Shown: one piece after another, positions 1,266 to 38,588 of the stretch
Layout: each line of letters begins with the position of its first letter
How positions within the stretch are numbered: position 1 is the first letter of the stretch
Source of the DNA: a virus
Virus record (IMG/VR): IMGVR_UViG_3300045988_106278
Span: 1-64,000 of that record
Direction: 5' to 3' (one strand)
DNA: 64,000 nucleotides
Program-made: the position numbers and the translations under genes
Notes under the pieces: generated by a model
The model's database searches: none
What the model saw: the letters and a program-made list of their open reading frames with translations, nothing else
Told to the model about the DNA's origin: nothing

Positions 1266-2381
1266 ATGCCAATAGTAGATGAAAGTAAACAAAATAAAGG
1301 AGTAAATAATAATACTCGGAATAAATAGATGGCTATAGATATGGAATATTATAATAGACTAAATCATCTTAGATTTAAATCTCCATATCTTGGTGCTAAA
1401 TATTAGTAGAGAGTTATTCCAGTTAGAACTTTAAATGGGGTACAAGATGTATTTGTAGATAATAGAGGGACTATAAAATAGGGAGGACATACTCATTCTA
1501 AATTATATAATTATAGTAATAAGAATAGAACCCATCCTATAAAAGGAGCTTATGCTAGAGAAGTAGATAGTTGGAATAATAATACTAGTCCTATTAAAGC
1601 ATTAGTTAATTCAGGAATAGGTTATGCTTTAGCTCCAGCAGCTTAGGCAGTATATGATTATACTAAAGGAGCTTTAGATATATCTAAGAATCCGACTAAA
1701 GCTAGTAATTATTTAGTAATGCTTCCTGTAATGGGATATGCTGTAAAAGCTCCTTTAAAACGTGGAGTAGAAGTAGCTATGAGAACTTCTAATAATGCTA
1801 ATCCTATAGAAGACATAGTATATAATATGCATAAAGCAAGTCCTAAAAAGCATGCTGGAGTATTGTCTTATATATCAACTGGTGTGGGTTACAATACCTA
1901 TGCTCCTGAAGCATATACTGGATTTTAGAAAGCAGCTAAAGGTAATGATATGATTGATGCTTATTTATATAATCCTTCTTATGGAGTAAAGAAAATAAAT
2001 GTAGATTATGGTCCACATGAGAATTATATAAGAAAGATATATCCATATAAAGATATTCCTGTATATGAAAATACTGAAACTTTAGATTTCTTTACTAAGA
2101 AACCTATGTAGAAAGCTTCTAATATAACTAATAAAACTCCTTGGAAAGGTGCTAATAATAATCTAGACTTTGGAGATACTGCTGGACATTTAGTTTAGGA
2201 AGGAACATCTAATGGTAAGAAAGTATATAGAGCACAAGATATTTGGAAGTTTAATCCTGATGAATATAAGTAGAAATGGAGTTCATATGATTTAGACAGT
2301 AAAGCTGTATTAGGATTAAAAATATTAGATAAGTTAGGAACTCCAGTAATAATAATAAGAACACCATGGCTATATAGGTAA
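1266..2381 (+). CDS. Hypothetical late protein (about 371 aa) with about 10 in-frame TAG codons
   Basis: Frame 0 is continuous from ATG 1266 to TAA 2379-2381 only with TAG as sense. The ORF-track fragment 1719..1928 is one inter-TAG piece of it. Confidence 0.6.
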
Positions 2382-3502
2382 TTACTGACAATGATTCAAT
2401 ATATGATTATTGGTATGAAGATGGGTATTTGTATGGTAGAAGAAAATCAAATAAAATCCCTTTTAGAATTAATTCTGATAAAGCTAATAAAATAATATAT
2501 CCATAGGTTTAGGCTAAAGGAGTAGATCCTGCTAAACCAACATCTACCTTAGTATACCATCCTGCAAAATATGAAGAAATGCCCACTGCTAAAAAAATAT
2601 CTATTCCTAAATAGGAAGAAGGAACAATATGGGAACGTGGTAAATAGTTGATTAATTTAGTAGGAAATGGATTAAGTAGAAAACTATAGTTATTTTTTGA
2701 TTCAGAACCTGAGCATACTAGTAAAAGAATTAAAATTTCTAATAAAAAAGTAACTAAAAATAAGAGGAGAGAAAATTTAGAAATAGAAATATCTCCAAAT
2801 AGTTATACTATAAATGATACTACTAAAATAAACTCTAGAAGATATCGTATACCAGAATCCATAAATTTAACAAAGCATACTTTTGGTTATAGAAATAGAG
2901 GTGATTATACTCCTATAAATAGTGTAGCAGCTCCTATTACTGCTTTTTCTAATTTCAAATCTAAAGAAAGCATATCTCCTAATAATTAGAATTATATAGG
3001 TATAGATTCTATTGGTAAATTTGTTTTTGGTAAATATTCAGATATTCCTAATGGAAGTATGATTTCTCCAACATTTAAAAATACAGTTACTGGTTTCAAA
3101 ACAGATTCTAAAGATAATGTATTATTCATGGAAAGTAATTCTAATGGTTCTAGAAAAAGTCCTATATTAAATGCCATAGTAAATGGTAAATCAGTAAATA
3201 ACAGACTAAATTTCTTAGCTAATAATAATAGAACTGATGAATATGGTTCTATAGCTGGAGGAAGAATAATTATATAGGCGGGTAAAGAAGTTCGTTTAGT
3301 TTCCGGAAGTATAGATAATATTAGAGATGAGATAGAAGCTATGAAATCTAGAAACAATGTTAAAACAGTAGATTTATATACTTTAGATAATGGTACTTAT
3401 CATTCAGGATTAAGAACTTTTGATAAAATATTTACTAGAGATGACTTACTAAAATATGATGCTCAAAATACGGGCGGAGGAAATTTTTTATATATAAAAT
3501 AA
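2366..3502 (+). CDS. Hypothetical late protein (about 378 aa) with about 9 in-frame TAG codons
   Basis: Frame 2 runs from ATG 2366, which overlaps the previous gene's end, to TAA 3500-3502. ORF-track fragment 3059..3277 lies inside it. Confidence 0.55.
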
Positions 3503-3556: not shown

Positions 3557-3744
3557 AATTAATAAATATCCATCCCCAAATATTTATTAATAAGTAACAG
3601 ATAATTCATTTAACTTATCACAAAAATCAAGAGTTAATTGATTATCTTGTAAATCATTATCTCCTATAGTATCAATAATCTACTGTACTTCATTAAGTAC
3701 TTTGTTCATTTTAGACTTTAAGTCTTTTAATTCTTTGTTAGTCA

Positions 3745-4026
3745 TTAATCAATTTTTATATAACCATTAACATCTAGATTATCATATATAGAAGTCATTG
3801 TATATCCTGTAATTGGATTTCTATAATGATATTTTTTAATTTCAATATCTTCTTCTGAATTAGAATTTATATTTTGGTTGTCTTTAATCCATTGGTCTAA
3901 ATCAGCTTCTGTTCCATTCTCTAATTGAAATAGAATCTTAGGTTCTGATTTTAATCGTTTTAATTTTTTAGTAAGATTAGTTGTTTTTAAAATCTTACCA
4001 TTTAATTCATAAATTGCTGCTATCAT
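3745..4026 (-). CDS. Hypothetical protein (93 aa)
   Basis: ORF track. It is the downstream member of the minus-strand cassette that holds the suppressor tRNA. Confidence 0.5.
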   Translation of the reverse strand: MIAAIYELNGKILKTTNLTKKLKRLKSEPKILFQLENGTEADLDQWIKDNQNINSNSEEDIEIKKYHYRNPITGYTMTSIYDNLDVNGYIKID

Positions 4027-4101: not shown

Positions 4102-4173
4102 TTCTCCCACAAGGATTCGAACCCTGGCTAAAAGATTTAGAGTCTTCTGTGCTAACCATTACACCATAGGAGA
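4102..4173 (-). tRNA. Amber suppressor tRNA, anticodon CUA (reads UAG); probably Gln identity
   Basis: Hand fold: acceptor TCTCCTA/TGGGAGA with one G-U pair. Anticodon stem is GAAGA/TCTTT with loop CTCTAAA (U33, CTA, A37). T arm is CAGGG-TTCGAAT-CCTTG; length 72 nt. U1-A72 and a D arm almost identical to the co-encoded tRNA-Gln(TTG) suggest Gln identity. Confidence 0.8.
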
Positions 4174-5445: not shown

Positions 5446-5471
5446 AAAGGGGACTTTGTCCCCTTTTTTTA
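5446..5471 (+). terminator. Rho-independent terminator
   Basis: aaaggggac tttg tcccctttttttt. Confidence 0.8.
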
Positions 5472-5502
5472 CTGTTTCTATTTATTTTTTTGTAGTGTTT
5501 GT

Positions 5503-5745
5503 ATGTTTAAGACATTTTATGGATTAGCATTTAAACATTATTTCCTTAACTCTGAAACATTAGAACTTTATCGTAATAAATATATTTCAAATATTGTTTA
5601 TGGTTGGTTTTTAATTGTCTCGGTTGATGGAGGAGCTACATGGGAAGAAGTGAAACATGTTAGTAGTGGAATCTTGGAAATAAGATATAAAAACTATCTT
5701 ATTGGATTAATTTCCGATGTTGAGGAATCTAAAGAGATAAAATAG
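5503..5745 (+). CDS. Hypothetical protein (80 aa)
   Basis: ORF track. Confidence 0.35.
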   Translation: MFKTFYGLAFKHYFLNSETLELYRNKYISNIVYGWFLIVSVDGGATWEEVKHVSSGILEIRYKNYLIGLISDVEESKEIK

Positions 5746-6321
5746 GAAGCATACACGACTCCCCAAAACTCAATCCCCAATTTCCAACAAATCTCAAATA
5801 TTCACTACAAATTCATATCTAAAATCACTTTTAAACCATATTACAAATTCAATATTTATCACAAAATACAGCACTTTATTATTTTATTTTAAATATTGAG
5901 TTAAACTAAAATCAAAACAACACAAATAAAAATAAACAAATGTTTTGTTTAATGACTTTTAAGGTTGAAATCCCTGTCTAAAGTTTACTTTAGACGAAAT
6001 CCTATAACGCAAAGCATACCTCAACGTGGTTTATAGGTCTTAAAACTAAAGTGCTTAATCCTCGCGATAGTATAAGGTAAATCGTATAAAGTTATGCAGT
6101 ATTTTTATATTGTAGTATACACACTGGTAAAATTACATTCTATAAACAACTTAAATCTTATGCAACTGAAGTAGAGCATAGTTTAAAAGTTGCAAAAGAA
6201 GGTTTTGATTGGGACGCGTTTGAAGCAAATCGAGGGGCTGATATGGATATTGATAACCACCTGAGCAAGTGTATAAACTGCTCTTAACTAGATTATTTAC
6301 TCTTTAACAAATAACAATAAA

Positions 6322-6565: not shown

Positions 6566-6865
6566 ATGTTAACAGGTCGATCAAGTCTCTTGCAGGTACA
6601 TCAATTGTATCTGCGAGAGATAAAAACTAAAGAACACTTACATTGGCGTAAACAAGTTATTAAAACACATAACATAGCTGTAGCCAATCGTAAATCTCAT
6701 AATTATGCAGTCCAACTCTTGGTAAAAGCTACTAATATTCCATATTCAGTAGAATTAGCTAAGTTGATGAATCTTATAATTAATGGGAAATTTACCCAAC
6801 GAAAAATGTATTATGTATCTATTGATACTGCGATATTTAAACTTATAAACAATTTAACTATTTAA
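6566..6865 (+). CDS. Hypothetical protein (99 aa)
   Basis: ORF track. Tightly packed with its neighbours. Confidence 0.45.
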   Translation: MLTGRSSLLQVHQLYLREIKTKEHLHWRKQVIKTHNIAVANRKSHNYAVQLLVKATNIPYSVELAKLMNLIINGKFTQRKMYYVSIDTAIFKLINNLTI

Positions 6866-6870
6866 ATAAA

Positions 6871-7335
6871 ATGAAGAAATATAACATTTGGAATAAAATT
6901 TTCCATAAAAGGGAATTAAACAAGAATGTTGCGGATTATAAACTTCAACAAGGTCTTGTTAATAGTTATGAGTGTTGGCTTACTAAAATTGGTAATGCCA
7001 ATACTCTATCTGAGTGTATGATACTCCATAAAAGAATTTGGCGTAAAGGGTTTCGTAATGCTAACCTTGGTCCAGATAAATATGGAATGTTTAGAACTAA
7101 AGATATAAACCTTATGACAATAAATGAGGTTTATATTGGAGGAATCTATGGTCTTAATACTTTAACCATTGCACAATGGGAAGATCGTAAAGAAGAACCA
7201 TATGATTCTACACAGACATGCTATGACATTGTCTCATGTGCGTATAAAAGATTGTTAAAATCTAACATTATAGCACTTGCAGATAATGCTAAGTTATTAG
7301 TAGCAGAATACCAACAAAATAATTATAAGTTATGA
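6871..7335 (+). CDS. Hypothetical protein (154 aa)
   Basis: ORF track. Confidence 0.5.
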   Translation: MKKYNIWNKIFHKRELNKNVADYKLQQGLVNSYECWLTKIGNANTLSECMILHKRIWRKGFRNANLGPDKYGMFRTKDINLMTINEVYIGGIYGLNTLTIAQWEDRKEEPYDSTQTCYDIVSCAYKRLLKSNIIALADNAKLLVAEYQQNNYKL

Positions 7336-34338: not shown

Positions 34339-34562
34339 ATTATCAAAAAGCTAGTCAAGTATCTCTATTAGTAGAATTAATTAAATCTTCTGAAATAGTG
34401 TCTAAAGAATATTCTGAAGCACATATACCAGAAGATTTAATTTCTAATATAAAGATATTGTGTATGAAAGATAATAGTTTTAGAAGAAGTTTCTATAGTA
34501 TAATGCAGAAACTTGGAAAGAAATATTTAGATATTTATATAAATAAATTATCAGCATTATGA
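34335..34562 (+). CDS. Hypothetical protein (75 aa)
   Basis: ORF track. Confidence 0.35.
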   Translation: MNYQKASQVSLLVELIKSSEIVSKEYSEAHIPEDLISNIKILCMKDNSFRRSFYSIMQKLGKKYLDIYINKLSAL

Positions 34563-35062
34563 ACTTAGTTTGGTTGAAATTAATAAAGCGAATCTTAACC
34601 CATAAGTATTATGTTGCTAAATATTGCTTTCAAATAGGATTATATTGGCAAGGTATTACTCATGATTTGTCTAAATTTAGTTTTACAGAATTTTCAAGAG
34701 CTATTAAGTATTGGGATGATAATATAAGTTCATTAGCGAATGAATGTAGAATATTAGGATATAGTCAAACATTCCTTCACCATAGAGGAAGAAATCCTCA
34801 TCATTATGAATATTGGATACATTCCTTAGATAATGGAGGAATTCCTGCTAAAATGCCTAAAAAATATGTTCTAGAACTTATATGTGATTATTTAGCAGCA
34901 GCTAAAACATATGGAGCTGACCCTAGAAGAGAATATACATGGTGGCTTAAACAACAGCCTCATATGAAAATCCACAAAAAAACTAAGAGTTATATAACTG
35001 AAGTGTTTTATAAATATAGTATAGGTTTAACATTAAAAGAATCAATTAATGGAAATTATTAA
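34559..35062 (+). CDS. Hypothetical protein, possible HD-family phosphohydrolase (167 aa)
   Basis: The spacing of His/Asp residues (LTHKY ... GITHDLSKF ... FLHHRGRNPHHYEYW ... D) resembles an HD motif, weakly. Sits directly upstream of the NAD+ cluster. Confidence 0.3.
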   Translation: MNLVWLKLIKRILTHKYYVAKYCFQIGLYWQGITHDLSKFSFTEFSRAIKYWDDNISSLANECRILGYSQTFLHHRGRNPHHYEYWIHSLDNGGIPAKMPKKYVLELICDYLAAAKTYGADPRREYTWWLKQQPHMKIHKKTKSYITEVFYKYSIGLTLKESINGNY

Positions 35063-35891
35063 TGCAACTGATGGCTATAAGCTTGGTCATCATCGTATGT
35101 ACCCAAAGGGTACACAAATGGTCTATAGTAACTGGACTCCTAGAAGTAATCGTTACTTCCCAGAAGCTATAGAAGGTTCTGTAGTATTTGGTATTCAGTA
35201 CTTTGTAAAGAAGTATTTGATAGAGGAATTTAACAAATGGTTTGCTCTTCCTAAGGAAGAAGCTATTAAGCAATTTGCTTATCGTGTAGGTAACTTTGTA
35301 GACCTTAACCAGGTTGGGACAAAGCATATTGAAGAACTCTATGATTTAGGATATCTTCCTATTGAAATTAAAGCTCTTCCTGAAGGTTCTATCTGTCCTA
35401 TAAGAGTACCTATGATGACTATTAAGAACACTCTCCCGGACTTCTTTTGGTTGACTAATTACTTGGAAACTTTAATTAGTTGTACTCTATGGCTTCCTTG
35501 TACTTCTGCAACAAGTGCTCGTCTTTATAAGAAGAGACTTATGGAACATGCTAGAAAGACTGGATTCCCAGAGGAAGTAAATCTAGGGTTCTCTTGTCAC
35601 GATTTCTCAATGAGAGGTATGGCAGGACTTGATGCTGCTATTATCTCCGGTATGGCTCATATGACCTCATTCTGTGGTAGTGAAACAATTCCTGCTATTG
35701 AAGCAGTAGAGCATTATTACGATGCAAATGTTACTGAAGAACTTGTAGCTGCAACTGTCCCGGCTTCGGAACATTCAGTGGCTTGCTCTACTATTAGTGA
35801 TTTTGAAGATAATGTAGAAGAAATAATCTTAGATGATTTTGGTAAATTAATTGGATATATTGATAAAAATGGAGACAAAAATTTGTTCTAA
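35049..35891 (+). CDS. nadV: Nicotinamide phosphoribosyltransferase-like (NAMPT/Namat), N-terminal fragment of a split gene
   Basis: TDGYKLGHHRMYPKGT and ...VPASEHSV are NAMPT family motifs. It ends ...FGKLIGYIDKNGDKNLF*, while the rest of the family domain is in 36458..37300. Confidence 0.75.
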   Translation: MEIINATDGYKLGHHRMYPKGTQMVYSNWTPRSNRYFPEAIEGSVVFGIQYFVKKYLIEEFNKWFALPKEEAIKQFAYRVGNFVDLNQVGTKHIEELYDLGYLPIEIKALPEGSICPIRVPMMTIKNTLPDFFWLTNYLETLISCTLWLPCTSATSARLYKKRLMEHARKTGFPEEVNLGFSCHDFSMRGMAGLDAAIISGMAHMTSFCGSETIPAIEAVEHYYDANVTEELVAATVPASEHSVACSTISDFEDNVEEIILDDFGKLIGYIDKNGDKNLF

Positions 35892-36480
35892 TTGTGGTTA
35901 GGAAAAACCTATTTCAGAATTTCCTAAGTGTAAAAGAAATAAAGATGGGTTAGATACTCATTGTAAAGAATGTAGAAATGCTAAAAATAAAGCATATAGA
36001 GAGGCTAATAAAGATAAAGTTAAAGTAGCTAGACATAAATATTATGAAGAAAATAAAGAGCATATATTAGCACAAAAGAAAATTTATGCAGATGCTCATA
36101 AAGAAGAAAAAGCTGCTTATGACAAAATTTATAGACAAGAAAATAAAGATAAATTACGGGAGCAAAAAAGAATATGGGAAAGAAATTCTTTAAAGTTTAA
36201 AATTCGTAATAACCTCAGACGTAGAGTGGCACATACTATGGAATTAATCGGATGTTCTATAGAATTTTTAAAAGAATATATTGCAAACAAATTTACTGAA
36301 GGAATGTCCTGGGATAATTATGGTGAATGGCATTTAGATCATATAAGACCATGTTCCTCTTTTGATTTATCTGATCCTATATAGCAAAAAGAGTGTTTCT
36401 GTTATAAAAATTTACAGCCTTTATGGGCTATTGATAATTTGAAAAAAGCGTATAAATATGAAAATTCAAAAAGCGTCTGA
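35869..36480 (+). CDS. HNH homing endonuclease (203 codons, two in-frame TAG), inserted between and overlapping both NAMPT halves
   Basis: METKICSNCG(TAG)EKPISEFPKCKRNKDGLDTHCKEC... has a Zn-finger-like N-terminus. GEWHLDHIRPCSSFDLSDPI(TAG)QKECFCYKNLQPLWAIDNLKK is an HNH motif. Ends at TGA 36478-36480. Missed by the ORF track because of the TAGs. Confidence 0.7.
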
Positions 36481-37300
36481 AGAGGACAAAAAACTTATTG
36501 GAGAATTATTGTCAATTAAAAGATTGATAAATGAATTATATCCTATTGGAATTGTATCTATAGTTAGTGATACTTATGATTTTTGGAGAGTGATAGAACG
36601 TATTCTCCCTCGTCTGAAAAAAGACATTATGAAGCGTGATGGTCGAGTAGTAATTCGTCCTGATAGTGGTGACCCAGTAGATATTATTTGTGGTCTTCGT
36701 ACAAATCCTCATTACCACACTGCAATGAAGGAAGGCAAGTACTATTGTGATTTCAATCCATTTATGGATGATGATGAAAGTCATTATGTAGAAGTATCTG
36801 AAGGTCAGTATTATGGAGCATATTATATGCTAGGTAAAATCTTTGGATGGAATACTACTGTAAATGATTATCGTTATCCAAGCACCAAGGTTGGGTTGCT
36901 CTATGGAGATTCTATCACTCTAGAGCGTCAGCGTGATATCTATGCTCGATTAGAGAACGCTCATATGGCAGCTTGTAATCTTGTTCTTGGTATTGGATCT
37001 TATACTTATCAGTTTAAGAGTCGTGATTCTTTGGGATTCGCAGTTAAAGCAACTGCTTGTATAATCAATGGAAAGCTTATAGAAATCTATAAGCATCCAA
37101 AGACTGATGATGGAACAAAGAACTCTCTCAAAGGTCTTATTAGAATTGAAGAAGAGAATGGTAAGTATGTCGCTTATGACCAGCAGACTAAGGATGCAGA
37201 ACTGCAAGGTTGTCTTAAAACAGTCTTTGTAGATGGAGAATTAGTAAGAGAATATTCTCTTTCTGAGATTCGTGAACGTGTAAATTCAACATTAGTATGA
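36458..37300 (+). CDS. nadV: Nicotinamide phosphoribosyltransferase-like (NAMPT/Namat), C-terminal fragment of a split gene
   Basis: SIVSDTYDFW and VIRPDSGDPVD (the RPDSGD motif) are NAMPT hallmarks. It carries its own ATG, which overlaps the 3' end of the HNH gene. Confidence 0.75.
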   Translation: MKIQKASEEDKKLIGELLSIKRLINELYPIGIVSIVSDTYDFWRVIERILPRLKKDIMKRDGRVVIRPDSGDPVDIICGLRTNPHYHTAMKEGKYYCDFNPFMDDDESHYVEVSEGQYYGAYYMLGKIFGWNTTVNDYRYPSTKVGLLYGDSITLERQRDIYARLENAHMAACNLVLGIGSYTYQFKSRDSLGFAVKATACIINGKLIEIYKHPKTDDGTKNSLKGLIRIEEENGKYVAYDQQTKDAELQGCLKTVFVDGELVREYSLSEIRERVNSTLV

Positions 37301-37791
37301 TAGAAATTGTTAATGGAGATTTACTTCAGTCAAATTTACCTCTTATAGCCCATCAAACTAATTGTTTAGGAGTAATGGGGGCAGGTATAGCTAAGGCTAT
37401 TAAAAATAAATGGAATAGCGTATATACACGATATGCCAATTATTGTAAATATTTTAAATATTCTAAAGAATTATTAGGGAAATGTCAAGTATGTATAACA
37501 GGAGGTGAACCTATTAATCTCGTAGCTAATTTGTTTGGTGAATATTCTTTTACTGAATCAATAGCTCCCTATGAAAATAGACATACTGATTATGATGCTC
37601 TTAAAAAAGCTTTATTAGATTTAAAAGACTTTTGTAAAGATAACGAGATTACAGAGATAGGCATTCCTTATAAATTAGGATGTGGATTAGCAGGAGGAGA
37701 TTGGGACGGAGTAGTTTATCCTATGCTCCAAGAACTTTTTGCTAATGATTTAACAATAACTCTTTATATTTATAAATTATGCAACAATTAA
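37297..37791 (+). CDS. Macro domain protein (ADP-ribose binding/processing)
   Basis: IVNGDLLQSNLPLIAHQTNCLGVMGAGIAKAI and GIPYKLGCGLAGGDWDGVVYPML match macro domain motifs. Confidence 0.6.
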   Translation: MIEIVNGDLLQSNLPLIAHQTNCLGVMGAGIAKAIKNKWNSVYTRYANYCKYFKYSKELLGKCQVCITGGEPINLVANLFGEYSFTESIAPYENRHTDYDALKKALLDLKDFCKDNEITEIGIPYKLGCGLAGGDWDGVVYPMLQELFANDLTITLYIYKLCNN

Positions 37792-38588
37792 ATTTAGTAC
37801 ATTTAGAAGACAGTGATATTAAGTATTCTATCTCTAGATTCCCTGATGGGGAAGTTCAAATTTCATTAGAAGAATTCAGCCATAAGGAGCAAGTATTAGT
37901 GCAATGTAGAATTACTAATGCTGAAGACTTATTTATACTTATGCAAGTTTTAGATATCCTTGATAGACACGAAGTTCTATATAAAATAAATATCTATTAC
38001 TTAATGAGTATGAGAATGGATCGAGTAATGGTTTTCAATAGACCATTCACTTTAAAAATAGTCTTAAATGTATTAAAAAATTGTAATGCAGAGACTATTG
38101 AAATTTTAGAACCTCATTCTGATGTTTATTATGATCCTAGATTCGGAGTTAAATTCATGCCTCTTTACGCTGAAAAGAATCCATCTAATAATACTTGGAA
38201 AGAATTTCAATTAGTTTTCCCAGATGCTGGGGCTGAAAAGAGAAATGAATTCAGATATAATCGTAAAGCAATTACTTGTAGTAAAGTTCGAGATTTAACT
38301 ACTGGAAGAATCTTAGAGATTAAAATAGATAATCCTGAAAATATACAGGATAAACCTCTGTTAATTCTTGATGATTTATGTGATGGTGGAGGCACTTTTT
38401 GTGGTATTGCTAAAGCATTTAATGCTTTAGGTATTTCTAAAGAGCGTTTATATATTGCAGTTACTCATATGGTAAATCCTAAAGGTATAAAGAATCTGTC
38501 AGAAAACTTTAATCACGTATGGTTTACTAACTCTTATAAAGACTGGGACAATCTTCCTGAGAATGTTACAATGTTTAAGGTTATCTAA
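37779..38588 (+). CDS. prs: Ribose-phosphate pyrophosphokinase-like protein (PRPP synthetase family; candidate ADP-ribose pyrophosphokinase Adps)
   Basis: SRFPDGEVQISLEE (compare Prs GRFSDGEV), LVFPDAGAEKR, and LILDDLCDGGGT (compare DDMIDTGGT, the PRPP-binding loop). Confidence 0.7.
   Translation: MQQLNLVHLEDSDIKYSISRFPDGEVQISLEEFSHKEQVLVQCRITNAEDLFILMQVLDILDRHEVLYKINIYYLMSMRMDRVMVFNRPFTLKIVLNVLKNCNAETIEILEPHSDVYYDPRFGVKFMPLYAEKNPSNNTWKEFQLVFPDAGAEKRNEFRYNRKAITCSKVRDLTTGRILEIKIDNPENIQDKPLLILDDLCDGGGTFCGIAKAFNALGISKERLYIAVTHMVNPKGIKNLSENFNHVWFTNSYKDWDNLPENVTMFKVI

Follow-up and report, generated by a model that had tools for sequence, protein, structure and literature searches.

Can a phage enzyme that serves against host immunity still be of use once a selfish element has cut its gene in two? 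The question is raised by six mutually overlapping open reading frames (ORFs), arranged like an operon on the plus strand, that fill positions 34559-38588 of a 64,000-nucleotide stretch of phage DNA (IMGVR_UViG_3300045988_106278, positions 1-64,000). This whole stretch is called the window below, and coordinates refer to it unless another contig is named. Its source is a roughly 175-kb low-GC gut phage that reads TAG as Gln in some of its genes. The block is a NARP1-AP operon, that is, the nicotinamide adenine dinucleotide (NAD+) reconstitution pathway NARP1 together with a phosphatase that accompanies it, an already known kind of system. Namat, the ligase of the pathway, is encoded here as two halves with an HNH endonuclease gene between them. 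We consider a NARP1-AP operon whose Namat was split by a homing endonuclease, and whose halves are kept by selection, to be the best explanation of the locus, with a probability of roughly 0.8.

A preliminary description of this DNA had taken the proximity of a NAMPT-family gene and a gene of the phosphoribosyl pyrophosphate (PRPP) synthetase family, PRPS, for a NARP1-like pairing. This view held. The Namat halves and the PRPS-like gene, Adps, lie on the same strand in overlapping ORFs, and the same pairing recurs in related contigs (L007, L009, L015 and L017; relatives are designated by L numbers).

The N-half aligns with residues 12-255 of the solved Namat 9w5x (E value 1e-74, as compared to about 1e-39 for mammalian NAMPT) and the C-half with residues 255-488 (5e-58, as compared to 4e-15 for human NAMPT). 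On the 500 positions of PHROG 448 they cover 15-267 and 263-496, respectively. The N-half carries Asp8 and Tyr10 (Namat D13 and Y15), the clamp-loop Arg35 in TPRSNRY (R40), HDFSMRG at 35598-35618 (F189, S190, R192) and the catalytic His242 in EHSVAC at 35769-35786. The C-half carries RPDSGDP at 36656-36676 (R306, D308), YGDS at 36902-36913 (G360, D361), KxPKTDDGTKNSLKG and the adenine-clamp helix GSYTYQFKSRD at 36995-37027. All the nicotinamide, ribose-phosphate and adenine contact residues listed in PMC12774641 are present, shared between the two halves, with Glu for D215. The NAMPT fragments had been expected to be cleanly split, and they are: between them they span the solved Namat structure, and no active-site residue is missing. 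The clamp also distinguishes Namat from Nampt. The motif GSYTYQFKSRD corresponds to GSFTYQYNTRD in SPbetaL1 Namat, GAQTYQRNTRD in Haemophilus ducreyi NadV and GGALLQKVDRD in Xanthomonas Nampt, the last two being without the adenine-clamp motif (PMC12774641), and the stacking residue expected at the third position of the clamp loop (Arg, Lys or Tyr) is present as Arg35. Taken together, these alignments support the assignment of the two NAMPT-family ORFs to a cleanly split Namat.

We modelled both halves with AlphaFold, joined end to end as one chain and using a 36-sequence alignment. The model reached a mean predicted local distance difference test score (pLDDT) of 76 and a predicted template modelling score (pTM) of 0.79, and its best PDB match was Namat 9w5x (target-normalised TM 0.88, 40% identity), ahead of NadV and NAMPT. 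From the single sequence, the joined halves reached a pLDDT of 33.

The Namat of the Bacillus phage SPbetaL1 (PDB 9w5x and 9w5w; PMC12774641) is therefore the best fold match to the joined model. At 40% identity, its nicotinamide, ribose-phosphate and adenine contacts are conserved or conservatively replaced here, and the clamp-helix motif (GSxFxFxFTRD) is present along with the Arg of the clamp loop. In SPbetaL1, one chain of 491 residues makes up the enzyme and forms a homodimer, head to tail in Namat, whereas the window encodes 280 + 280 residues in two ORFs in different frames. The proteins of the window further differ in that the N-half has a tail of 34 residues and the C-half about 8 additional residues, and by Glu for Asp215 and a lineage-specific insertion of about 40 residues in the C-half. 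This insertion (36695-36814, Namat-C residues 80-119; LRTNPHYHTAMKEGKYYC...EVSEGQYY) was modelled confidently as beta-hairpins, and most of it is missing from the uninterrupted allele P0125.

The break lies five codons past the catalytic histidine codon, at EHSV(M/A)C/A. As the preliminary description had it, the NAMPT-family gene is cut into two separately initiated halves by an HNH gene that overlaps both: the N-half has a TAA stop and the C-half its own ATG, and the HNH frame shares 23 nucleotides with the end of the one and 23 with the start of the other. The 5' end of the HNH gene provides the last codons and the stop of the N-half, and its 3' end the start codon of the C-half, the three genes lying in successive frames with a step of +1 each. 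The N-half tail (STISDFEDNVEEIILDDFGKLIGYIDKNGDKNLF, 35787-35888), whose last seven codons overlap the HNH start, is not found in unsplit Namat and has a pLDDT below 50. The strings FGKLIGY and DKKLIGEL, previously described as a partly duplicated linker, are both present and share 12 of 18 nucleotides here. Their counterpart peptides in L009 share only IG, and the supposed duplication is a four-residue coincidence in this lineage.

An empty allele of the insertion site was found in L011, a 51.7-kb contig that is 96-100% identical to the window on both sides and in which Namat is uninterrupted. Identity drops to 0-69% in a single block (Table 1). Within it, 747 nucleotides of the window (35780-36526) stand in place of 49 nucleotides in L011, and identity remains at 59-69% up to about 36640. 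The L011-type empty site reads GAACATTCAGTAATGTGCGCAGGAGGTGAGGATGG. Other uninterrupted alleles occur in L010/P0125 and in L002 (75% identical). Since a diverged block of this kind is the pattern expected of an endonuclease cassette with co-converted flanks, it looks like a mobile cassette whose flanks were co-converted from a diverged donor. This comparison, the break shared among lineages and the selection on both halves support a free-standing HNH homing-endonuclease cassette and two polypeptides that would reassemble, and not an intron, an intein or a pseudogene.

The arrangement resembles the genes in pieces of T4-like phages (PMC2988022), such as mobE in nrdA of Aeromonas phage Aeh1, mobA in the topoisomerase gene of T4 and seg in gene 43 of phage 25. 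In both cases a free-standing HNH-type gene occupies a conserved and functionally critical coding site and leaves two ORFs, each half having its own stop or start, without loss of the enzyme; the split reductase (nrdA) of Aeh1 is active (PMC2988022). In contrast to the T4-like cases, the target here is an anti-defence enzyme and not a replication enzyme, several diverged lineages share the split, and the endonuclease gene uses a code with a reassigned stop.

The order N-half, HNH, C-half, variable gene, Adps was found in four diverged lineages: the window with L007 and L008 (contigs of 174-177 kb), L009 (186 kb), L015 with L016, and L017 with L018. At least 10 protein clusters contain split N-halves, of 278-295 residues and with a similar tail, and the tail pattern (I/V)D(I/V)xEVILDDxxKIIGY(I/V)DxxG is repeated in them down to 63% identity. 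When the window is compared with L009, where dS exceeds 1.2, the ratio of nonsynonymous to synonymous substitution rates (dN/dS) amounts to 0.13 in the N-half, 0.15 in the C-half and 0.20 in Adps; between the window and L007 it is 0.08 for the N-half and 0.04 for the C-half (0.04-0.09 overall). None of the five split loci has lost a catalytic, clamp or Adps donor-loop motif. Both Namat halves are kept by purifying selection. The degraded pseudogene that the preliminary description had named as the outcome fatal to its proposal was not what we found, with active-site residues complete over both halves at a dN/dS of 0.13-0.15.

Other interruptions of Namat were noticed among the relatives. In L014, Rfam detects a group I intron (3575-3784; 55.6 bits, E 1e-11) that interrupts a related Namat within the adenine-clamp motif, immediately behind ...SRDSLG; truncated Namat proteins of 438 and 453 residues in the databases are explained by such an intron. 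In L013 (5194-6751) a related Namat is broken after ...NLVLGIG by a 385-residue DUF723 ORF with non-coding flanks of 144 and 256 nucleotides, in which Rfam finds no intron at its gathering threshold. This would be a third kind of insertion in Namat and the source of the 397-residue forms. In L002 (5551-7536), whose locus is without a macro gene, an AAA-ATPase ORF of about 207 residues runs in frame into Namat without a stop, which could be a fusion or a stop or start that went unrecognised.

The preliminary description had called for profile searches to separate Adps from bona fide Prs. The PRPS-like protein scored below every curated Prs cutoff of NCBIfam/TIGRFAM (69 bits against a cutoff of 113 for TIGR01251, the best; 21-58 bits against 296-536 for the equivalogs), and it shares the donor loop, the catalytic Lys and the loss of C-terminal helices with Adps (PMC13586617). 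Its best solved relative is Bacillus Prs (E 2e-10). Aligned with the active Adps of phage ICP1 (ORF228, for which structures and activity are reported in PMC13586617), it conserves F18, R87, H121, D161, K185, D212, D213, C215, D216 and F221. Its donor loop DDLCDGGGTF (38370-38399) follows the Adps pattern DDxCDGGxTF and compares with DDICDGAASF in ICP1 and DDIIDTAGTI in Bacillus Prs; Lys185 of the catalytic hairpin is present in SKVRD (38280-38294). F92 and F223 of ICP1 Adps are not conserved here and are variable in Felixounavirus Adps too. The protein ends where the Adps of ICP1, Felixounavirus and JSF10 end, about 20 residues short of the end of Bacillus Prs, and therefore is without the C-terminal alpha11-alpha12 regulatory and filament helices of Prs. 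These features support an Adps-like protein and not a housekeeping Prs. A tblastn search found homologues in 895 records of phages, among them Felixounavirus and phages of Listeria, Pseudomonas and Vibrio. NARP1 has reportedly been characterised in phages of those kinds, for example Bas63 and ICP1.

Between Namat-C and Adps lies a macro-domain gene whose product carries the motif GCGLAGGDW (37678-37704). According to Osterman et al. (bioRxiv 10.64898/2026.01.28.702374), 15% of NARP1 operons encode Adpp, a macro protein resembling Poa1p that converts ADP-ribose-1''-phosphate (ADPR-1''-P), the product of aRES, into ADP-ribose (ADPR); the Adpp of Vibrio phage Gary has been assayed (same source). 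The macro protein of the window is 85% identical to the copy in the close relative MT835492.1, and its next-best phage matches are proteins of Vibrio harveyi Thalassavirus phages sited between Adps and Namat. It is 41% identical to AG74 gp177, which shares 95.5% identity with the protein that phage Gary encodes beside Adps, in the position of Adpp. We assign it as Adpp, a putative ADPR-1''-P phosphatase. The preliminary description was right on the position of this gene and on an extra step acting on an ADP-ribose derivative. It had also called the gene unusual, which it is not, because NARP1-AP was described in 2026 (bioRxiv 10.64898/2026.01.28.702374).

The NARP1-AP operon of phage Gary contains the same three enzyme families in one overlapping operon. 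Adpp proteins of the Gary group are 37-41% identical to the macro protein here, and the same chemistry would be expected, from ADPR-1''-P to ADPR, ADP-ribose pyrophosphate (ADPR-PP) and NAD+. The gene order differs, being Namat, Adpp, Adps here and Adps, Adpp, Namat in Gary, and unlike in Gary, Namat here consists of two polypeptides with an endonuclease gene between them. The hosts differ as well, since the Gary group infects Vibrio whereas the phages studied here are of a gut Bacteroidota type, low in GC and TAG-recoded.

The gene between Namat-C and Adps varies by lineage. It is the macro gene here and a 138-145-residue ORF in others (no Pfam match in a scan of the L009 copy, and none recorded for L015 and L017). 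L017 and L018 have an added ORF of the NAD_synthase family at this place (L017 5377-6267). The L009 genes noted in this connection lie at 5453-5869 and 6647-7201; L009 has a Tad2-like (Thoeris anti-defence) gene directly behind Adps.

Several observations weigh against an operon that works as proposed. In MT835492.1 (L001, 97% identical), an in-frame microhomology deletion of window positions 34655-37203 (L001 4560-4745) joins codon 32 of the DUF5662 gene to the last 29 codons of Namat-C, leaving the macro and Adps genes. The uninterrupted Namat of L011 (5001-6474), a contig 96-97% identical to the window, is a pseudogene, with a 78-nucleotide deletion that takes HDFSMRG and a frameshift downstream, and that of L002 is without about 60 C-terminal residues. 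Damage and loss are frequent enough among relatives that the pathway must be dispensable at times. The N-half tail is weakly constrained, with a ratio of nonsynonymous to synonymous polymorphism (pN/pS) of 0.5-1.3 on 24-27 codons. The AlphaFold model is that of a single joined chain, and its junction (residues 238-276) has a pLDDT below 50. At the position of Namat D215, GSE212 has Glu for Asp, invariant across the clade and the sole notable change in the active site. Finally, the sequence link between the macro protein and Poa1p is weak (E 2e-4 to 6e-4), and structures of DarG and TARG1 match it better. The three damaged relatives and the poorly constrained tail could be taken to mean that the split Namat is dead as well, its ORFs being remnants on their way to deletion. 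We consider this unlikely: full-length halves are found in five loci of four lineages with a dN/dS of 0.04-0.15 at saturating dS, all motifs are intact, and the damaged copies in this population are uninterrupted alleles, not split ones. The loss pattern fits an accessory anti-defence function under fluctuating selection. A single polypeptide could also be restored if the intervening DNA were removed or bypassed, as a group I or II intron, through a split intein in a 'fractured gene' or by ribosomal bypassing. A group I intron does occur elsewhere in related Namat genes, fractured genes are on record in which a free-standing endonuclease lies between split inteins (PMC2677866), and the three frames step by +1 each. 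Nevertheless, no intron was matched by Rfam here at the gathering threshold, nor was there any match in positions 35600-36700 at E values up to 10 in a search for which the L014 intron was the positive control, and the 566 nucleotides from stop to start lie wholly within the HNH frame, with no space for a ribozyme core. The halves together contain only about 43 extra residues (28 past the alignment of the N-half and 15 before that of the C-half to Namat) as compared to the 130 or so that an intein needs, and neither Hint nor intein domains were matched in Pfam. The Cys before the break is native and not derived from an intein, since the unsplit protein reads SVMCA at this place. We know of no precedent for a translational bypass of 566 nucleotides. 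On the Rfam result, the lengths, the frames and the lack of a Hint match, we dropped the group I intron, the split intein and the bypass, and restoration of a single chain by any such route is hardly credible.

The pair could also be an ordinary Nampt with a PRPP synthetase, making nicotinamide mononucleotide (NMN) from PRPP and nicotinamide in a NARP2-like pathway or in nucleotide salvage. Namat does keep PRPP-dependent NMN synthesis in vitro (PMC12774641), and the 40% identity to Namat is little above the 36% to H. ducreyi NadV, with D215 replaced by Glu. However, clamp positions 3 and 7 are aromatic as in Namat, where NadV has Gln and Arg, and the clamp-loop Arg is conserved. The partner protein misses all Prs cutoffs and has both the Adps donor loop and the Adps-type C-terminal truncation, and a scan limited to neighbouring genes, and not extended over the rest of the window, showed no NMN adenylyltransferase. 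We hold this reading to be very improbable. A somewhat better case, though still a weak one, can be made for the macro protein as a de-ADP-ribosylase, DarG-like and directed against DarT or TARG1-like, that stands beside NARP1 by chance. It stays a minor rival because the sequence also resembles DarG and TARG1, with a partial match to the NCBIfam DarG family at E 4e-17 and PDB matches at 4e-9 (DarG) and 1e-7 (TARG1) as compared to 2e-4 for Poa1p. On the other hand, the macro gene overlaps Namat-C and Adps translationally, the phage proteins that its product matches best, apart from that of MT835492.1, come from Thalassavirus and hold the same operon position, and the Gary counterpart, so close to AG74 gp177, corresponds to the assayed Adpp. 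We therefore retain a NARP1-AP operon with a split and selected Namat.

Table 1. Positions of the six genes of the block, of the diverged block and of the amber suppressor tRNA gene in the window.
Feature	Position	Strand	Details
tRNA, anticodon CUA (amber suppressor)	4102-4173	-	ARAGORN and Rfam tRNA, 63.6 bits
DUF5662 gene	34559-35062	+	first gene of the block; Pfam PF18907, E 2e-31
Namat N-half	35049-35891	+	280 residues; TAA stop at 35889-35891; Pfam NAMPT_N and NAPRTase profile positions 1-60
Diverged block	35780-36640	+	endonuclease gene with flanks of about 90 nt (left) and about 160 nt (right)
HNH endonuclease frame	35869-36480	+	203 codons; TGA stop; PHROG 1035 endonuclease VII, E 2e-26
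Namat C-half	36458-37300	+	280 residues; ATG at 36458; Pfam NAPRTase positions 72-238
Macro-domain protein	37297-37791	+	164 residues; Pfam Macro, E 1e-8; PHROG 335 'phosphatase', E 7e-39
Adps-like PRPS homologue	37779-38588	+	269 residues; PHROG 619, E 3e-61; weak Pribosyltran Pfam matches

The endonuclease gene had been presumed intact. Its frame is not open in the standard code, with in-frame TAG codons at 35899-35901 and 36382-36384, and it has suffered a 30-nucleotide deletion at about 36228, between GCACAT repeats, that removes AHALKGESKS, a segment kept in all aligned full-length homologues. The family features are recognisable (zinc-finger cysteines CxxC...CxxC at the N-terminus, HLDH at 36331-36342 and NLQPLW...N). 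Homologues numbered 5740. Gln stands opposite the second TAG in nearly all homologues and opposite the first in the two nearest. In the L009 orthologue nine TAG codons are in frame, with a single CAA, while nine neighbouring genes have no TAG; its nine TAG codons align in the window with Gln (5), TAG (2) and Glu (2), and the gene caller of the source had read them as Gln. The HNH frame shows a dN/dS of 0.075 against L009. Near-identical genomes carry independent lesions in this gene, namely the 30-nucleotide deletion here and a 1-nucleotide frameshift in L007, and both Namat halves are intact in each. The copy in the window is probably inactive and decaying, as its lesions indicate. The usual course of such elements is invasion, fixation and decay of the endonuclease, with the host gene kept.

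A tRNA with a CUA anticodon is encoded near the left end of the window (Table 1), and it has the same D-arm as the tRNA-Gln(UUG) of the phage. It adjoins three plus-strand ORFs (162-806, 1266-2381 and 2366-3502) that are open only when TAG is sense, with 6, 9 and 8 TAG as compared to 5, 3 and 1 CAA/CAG codons, and that have no PHROG match. Most of the region from 6 to 64 kb is in the standard code. The tRNA is likely the means by which TAG is read in the HNH gene and in these ORFs. From the TAG codons at Gln positions, the CUA tRNA and the TAG-rich ORFs, TAG stands for Gln in a subset of phage genes that includes the HNH gene. The TAG codons of the HNH gene would therefore be translatable only once the tRNA is present, and we infer that the endonuclease would be made only after a code switch. 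Borges et al. (bioRxiv 10.1101/2021.08.26.457843) described a recoded intron endonuclease within an early gene of the TGA-recoded Agate phages. There too, an endonuclease rich in the reassigned stop is set in standard-code early genes, with a predicted delay until the code switch. The differences are that TAG to Gln is used here and not TGA to Trp, and that the endonuclease here is free-standing and the protein split, in place of a self-splicing intron. Two further tRNA genes were noted. An 85-nucleotide tRNA-like gene (11396-11480, plus strand) has an anticodon called UUA, that of an ochre suppressor, although the stop most often used is TAA (in 57 of 90 long ORFs), and a tRNA at 14025-14097 (plus strand) has an irregular anticodon loop.

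The genes around the block belong to replication and nucleotide metabolism (helicase, primase, exonucleases and NrdD). An HD-type hydrolase had been suspected in the gene that opens the block. Its product matches Pfam DUF5662 only, and searches for HD domains, NCBIfam families and PDB sequences gave no match; a literature search on the DUF5662 family found nothing. The gene is syntenic in L007, L008, L011, L014 and L002. As homologues were found in 11 phage records only, DUF5662 is not generally tied to NARP1. A scan for sigma-70 promoters returned 31 promoter-like sites as compared to 38.3 expected from shuffled sequences, with a consensus that is uninformative for a Bacteroidota-type phage. 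Terminator-like sites numbered 5 as compared to 1.6 ± 1.4 in shuffles, a slight excess only and equally uninformative for such a phage. One sigma-70-like site (TTTACA, 16 nucleotides, GATAAT; 10/12) lies at 36411-36438 (plus strand) inside the 3' end of the HNH gene, 20 nucleotides before the start of Namat-C; shuffled sequences contain no fewer sites of this kind, and the consensus is not one that the likely host uses.

We propose the following course of events. Adpp would strip the 1''-phosphate from ADPR-1''-P, the product of RES-type NADases, Adps would move pyrophosphate from ATP onto ADPR, and Namat would join the resulting ADPR-PP to nicotinamide, the rebuilt NAD+ countering NAD+-depleting defences. 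A free-standing HNH cassette would have inserted after the catalytic His, giving the N-half its stop and the C-half its start, and Namat would now be produced in two polypeptides of 280 residues each. Since the active site and the adenine clamp are both divided between them, the halves would have to reassemble, non-covalently and presumably as an N2C2 equivalent of the Namat homodimer. The endonuclease, written with TAG for Gln, would be translated only in the presence of the CUA tRNA, and is apparently decaying in this genome. These activities, the assembly of the halves and the timing of the endonuclease are deduced from residues, alignments and codons. A bolder version appears improbable to us, namely that the N-half tail and the C-half head evolved as an assembly module for the fragments, or that the TAG-coded endonuclease ties synthesis of the C-half to the code switch as a timing device for NAD+ reconstitution. 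Given a pN/pS of this order on some 25 codons, a role of the tail as an assembly clasp is speculative; a strongly selected clasp was rejected, the ratio speaking against strong constraint.

A literature search for split NAMPT or Namat returned nothing relevant, and a Namat split into two selected polypeptides by a recoded and decaying HNH cassette appears to be unreported. Phages widely counter immunity that depletes NAD+ by means of NARP1 and NARP1-AP, which were recognised only recently, and the locus extends the pathway to low-GC, TAG-recoded phages of the human gut. In these phages the key ligase can work, or at least is selected, as two separately translated fragments with the active site and the adenine clamp divided between them. 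This offers a natural case of fragment complementation for which a crystal structure of the single-chain enzyme is at hand, and the reassembly of endonuclease-split enzymes is a question still listed as open in reviews of T4-like phages. Such operons will be overlooked or wrongly called by annotation pipelines and NARP1 surveys built around the standard code and a Namat of about 490 residues. Finally, with an HNH cassette, a group I intron and a DUF723 ORF among its invaders and with its recurrent loss, Namat is a hotspot for selfish elements and for loss, which fits fluctuating selection on anti-defence genes.

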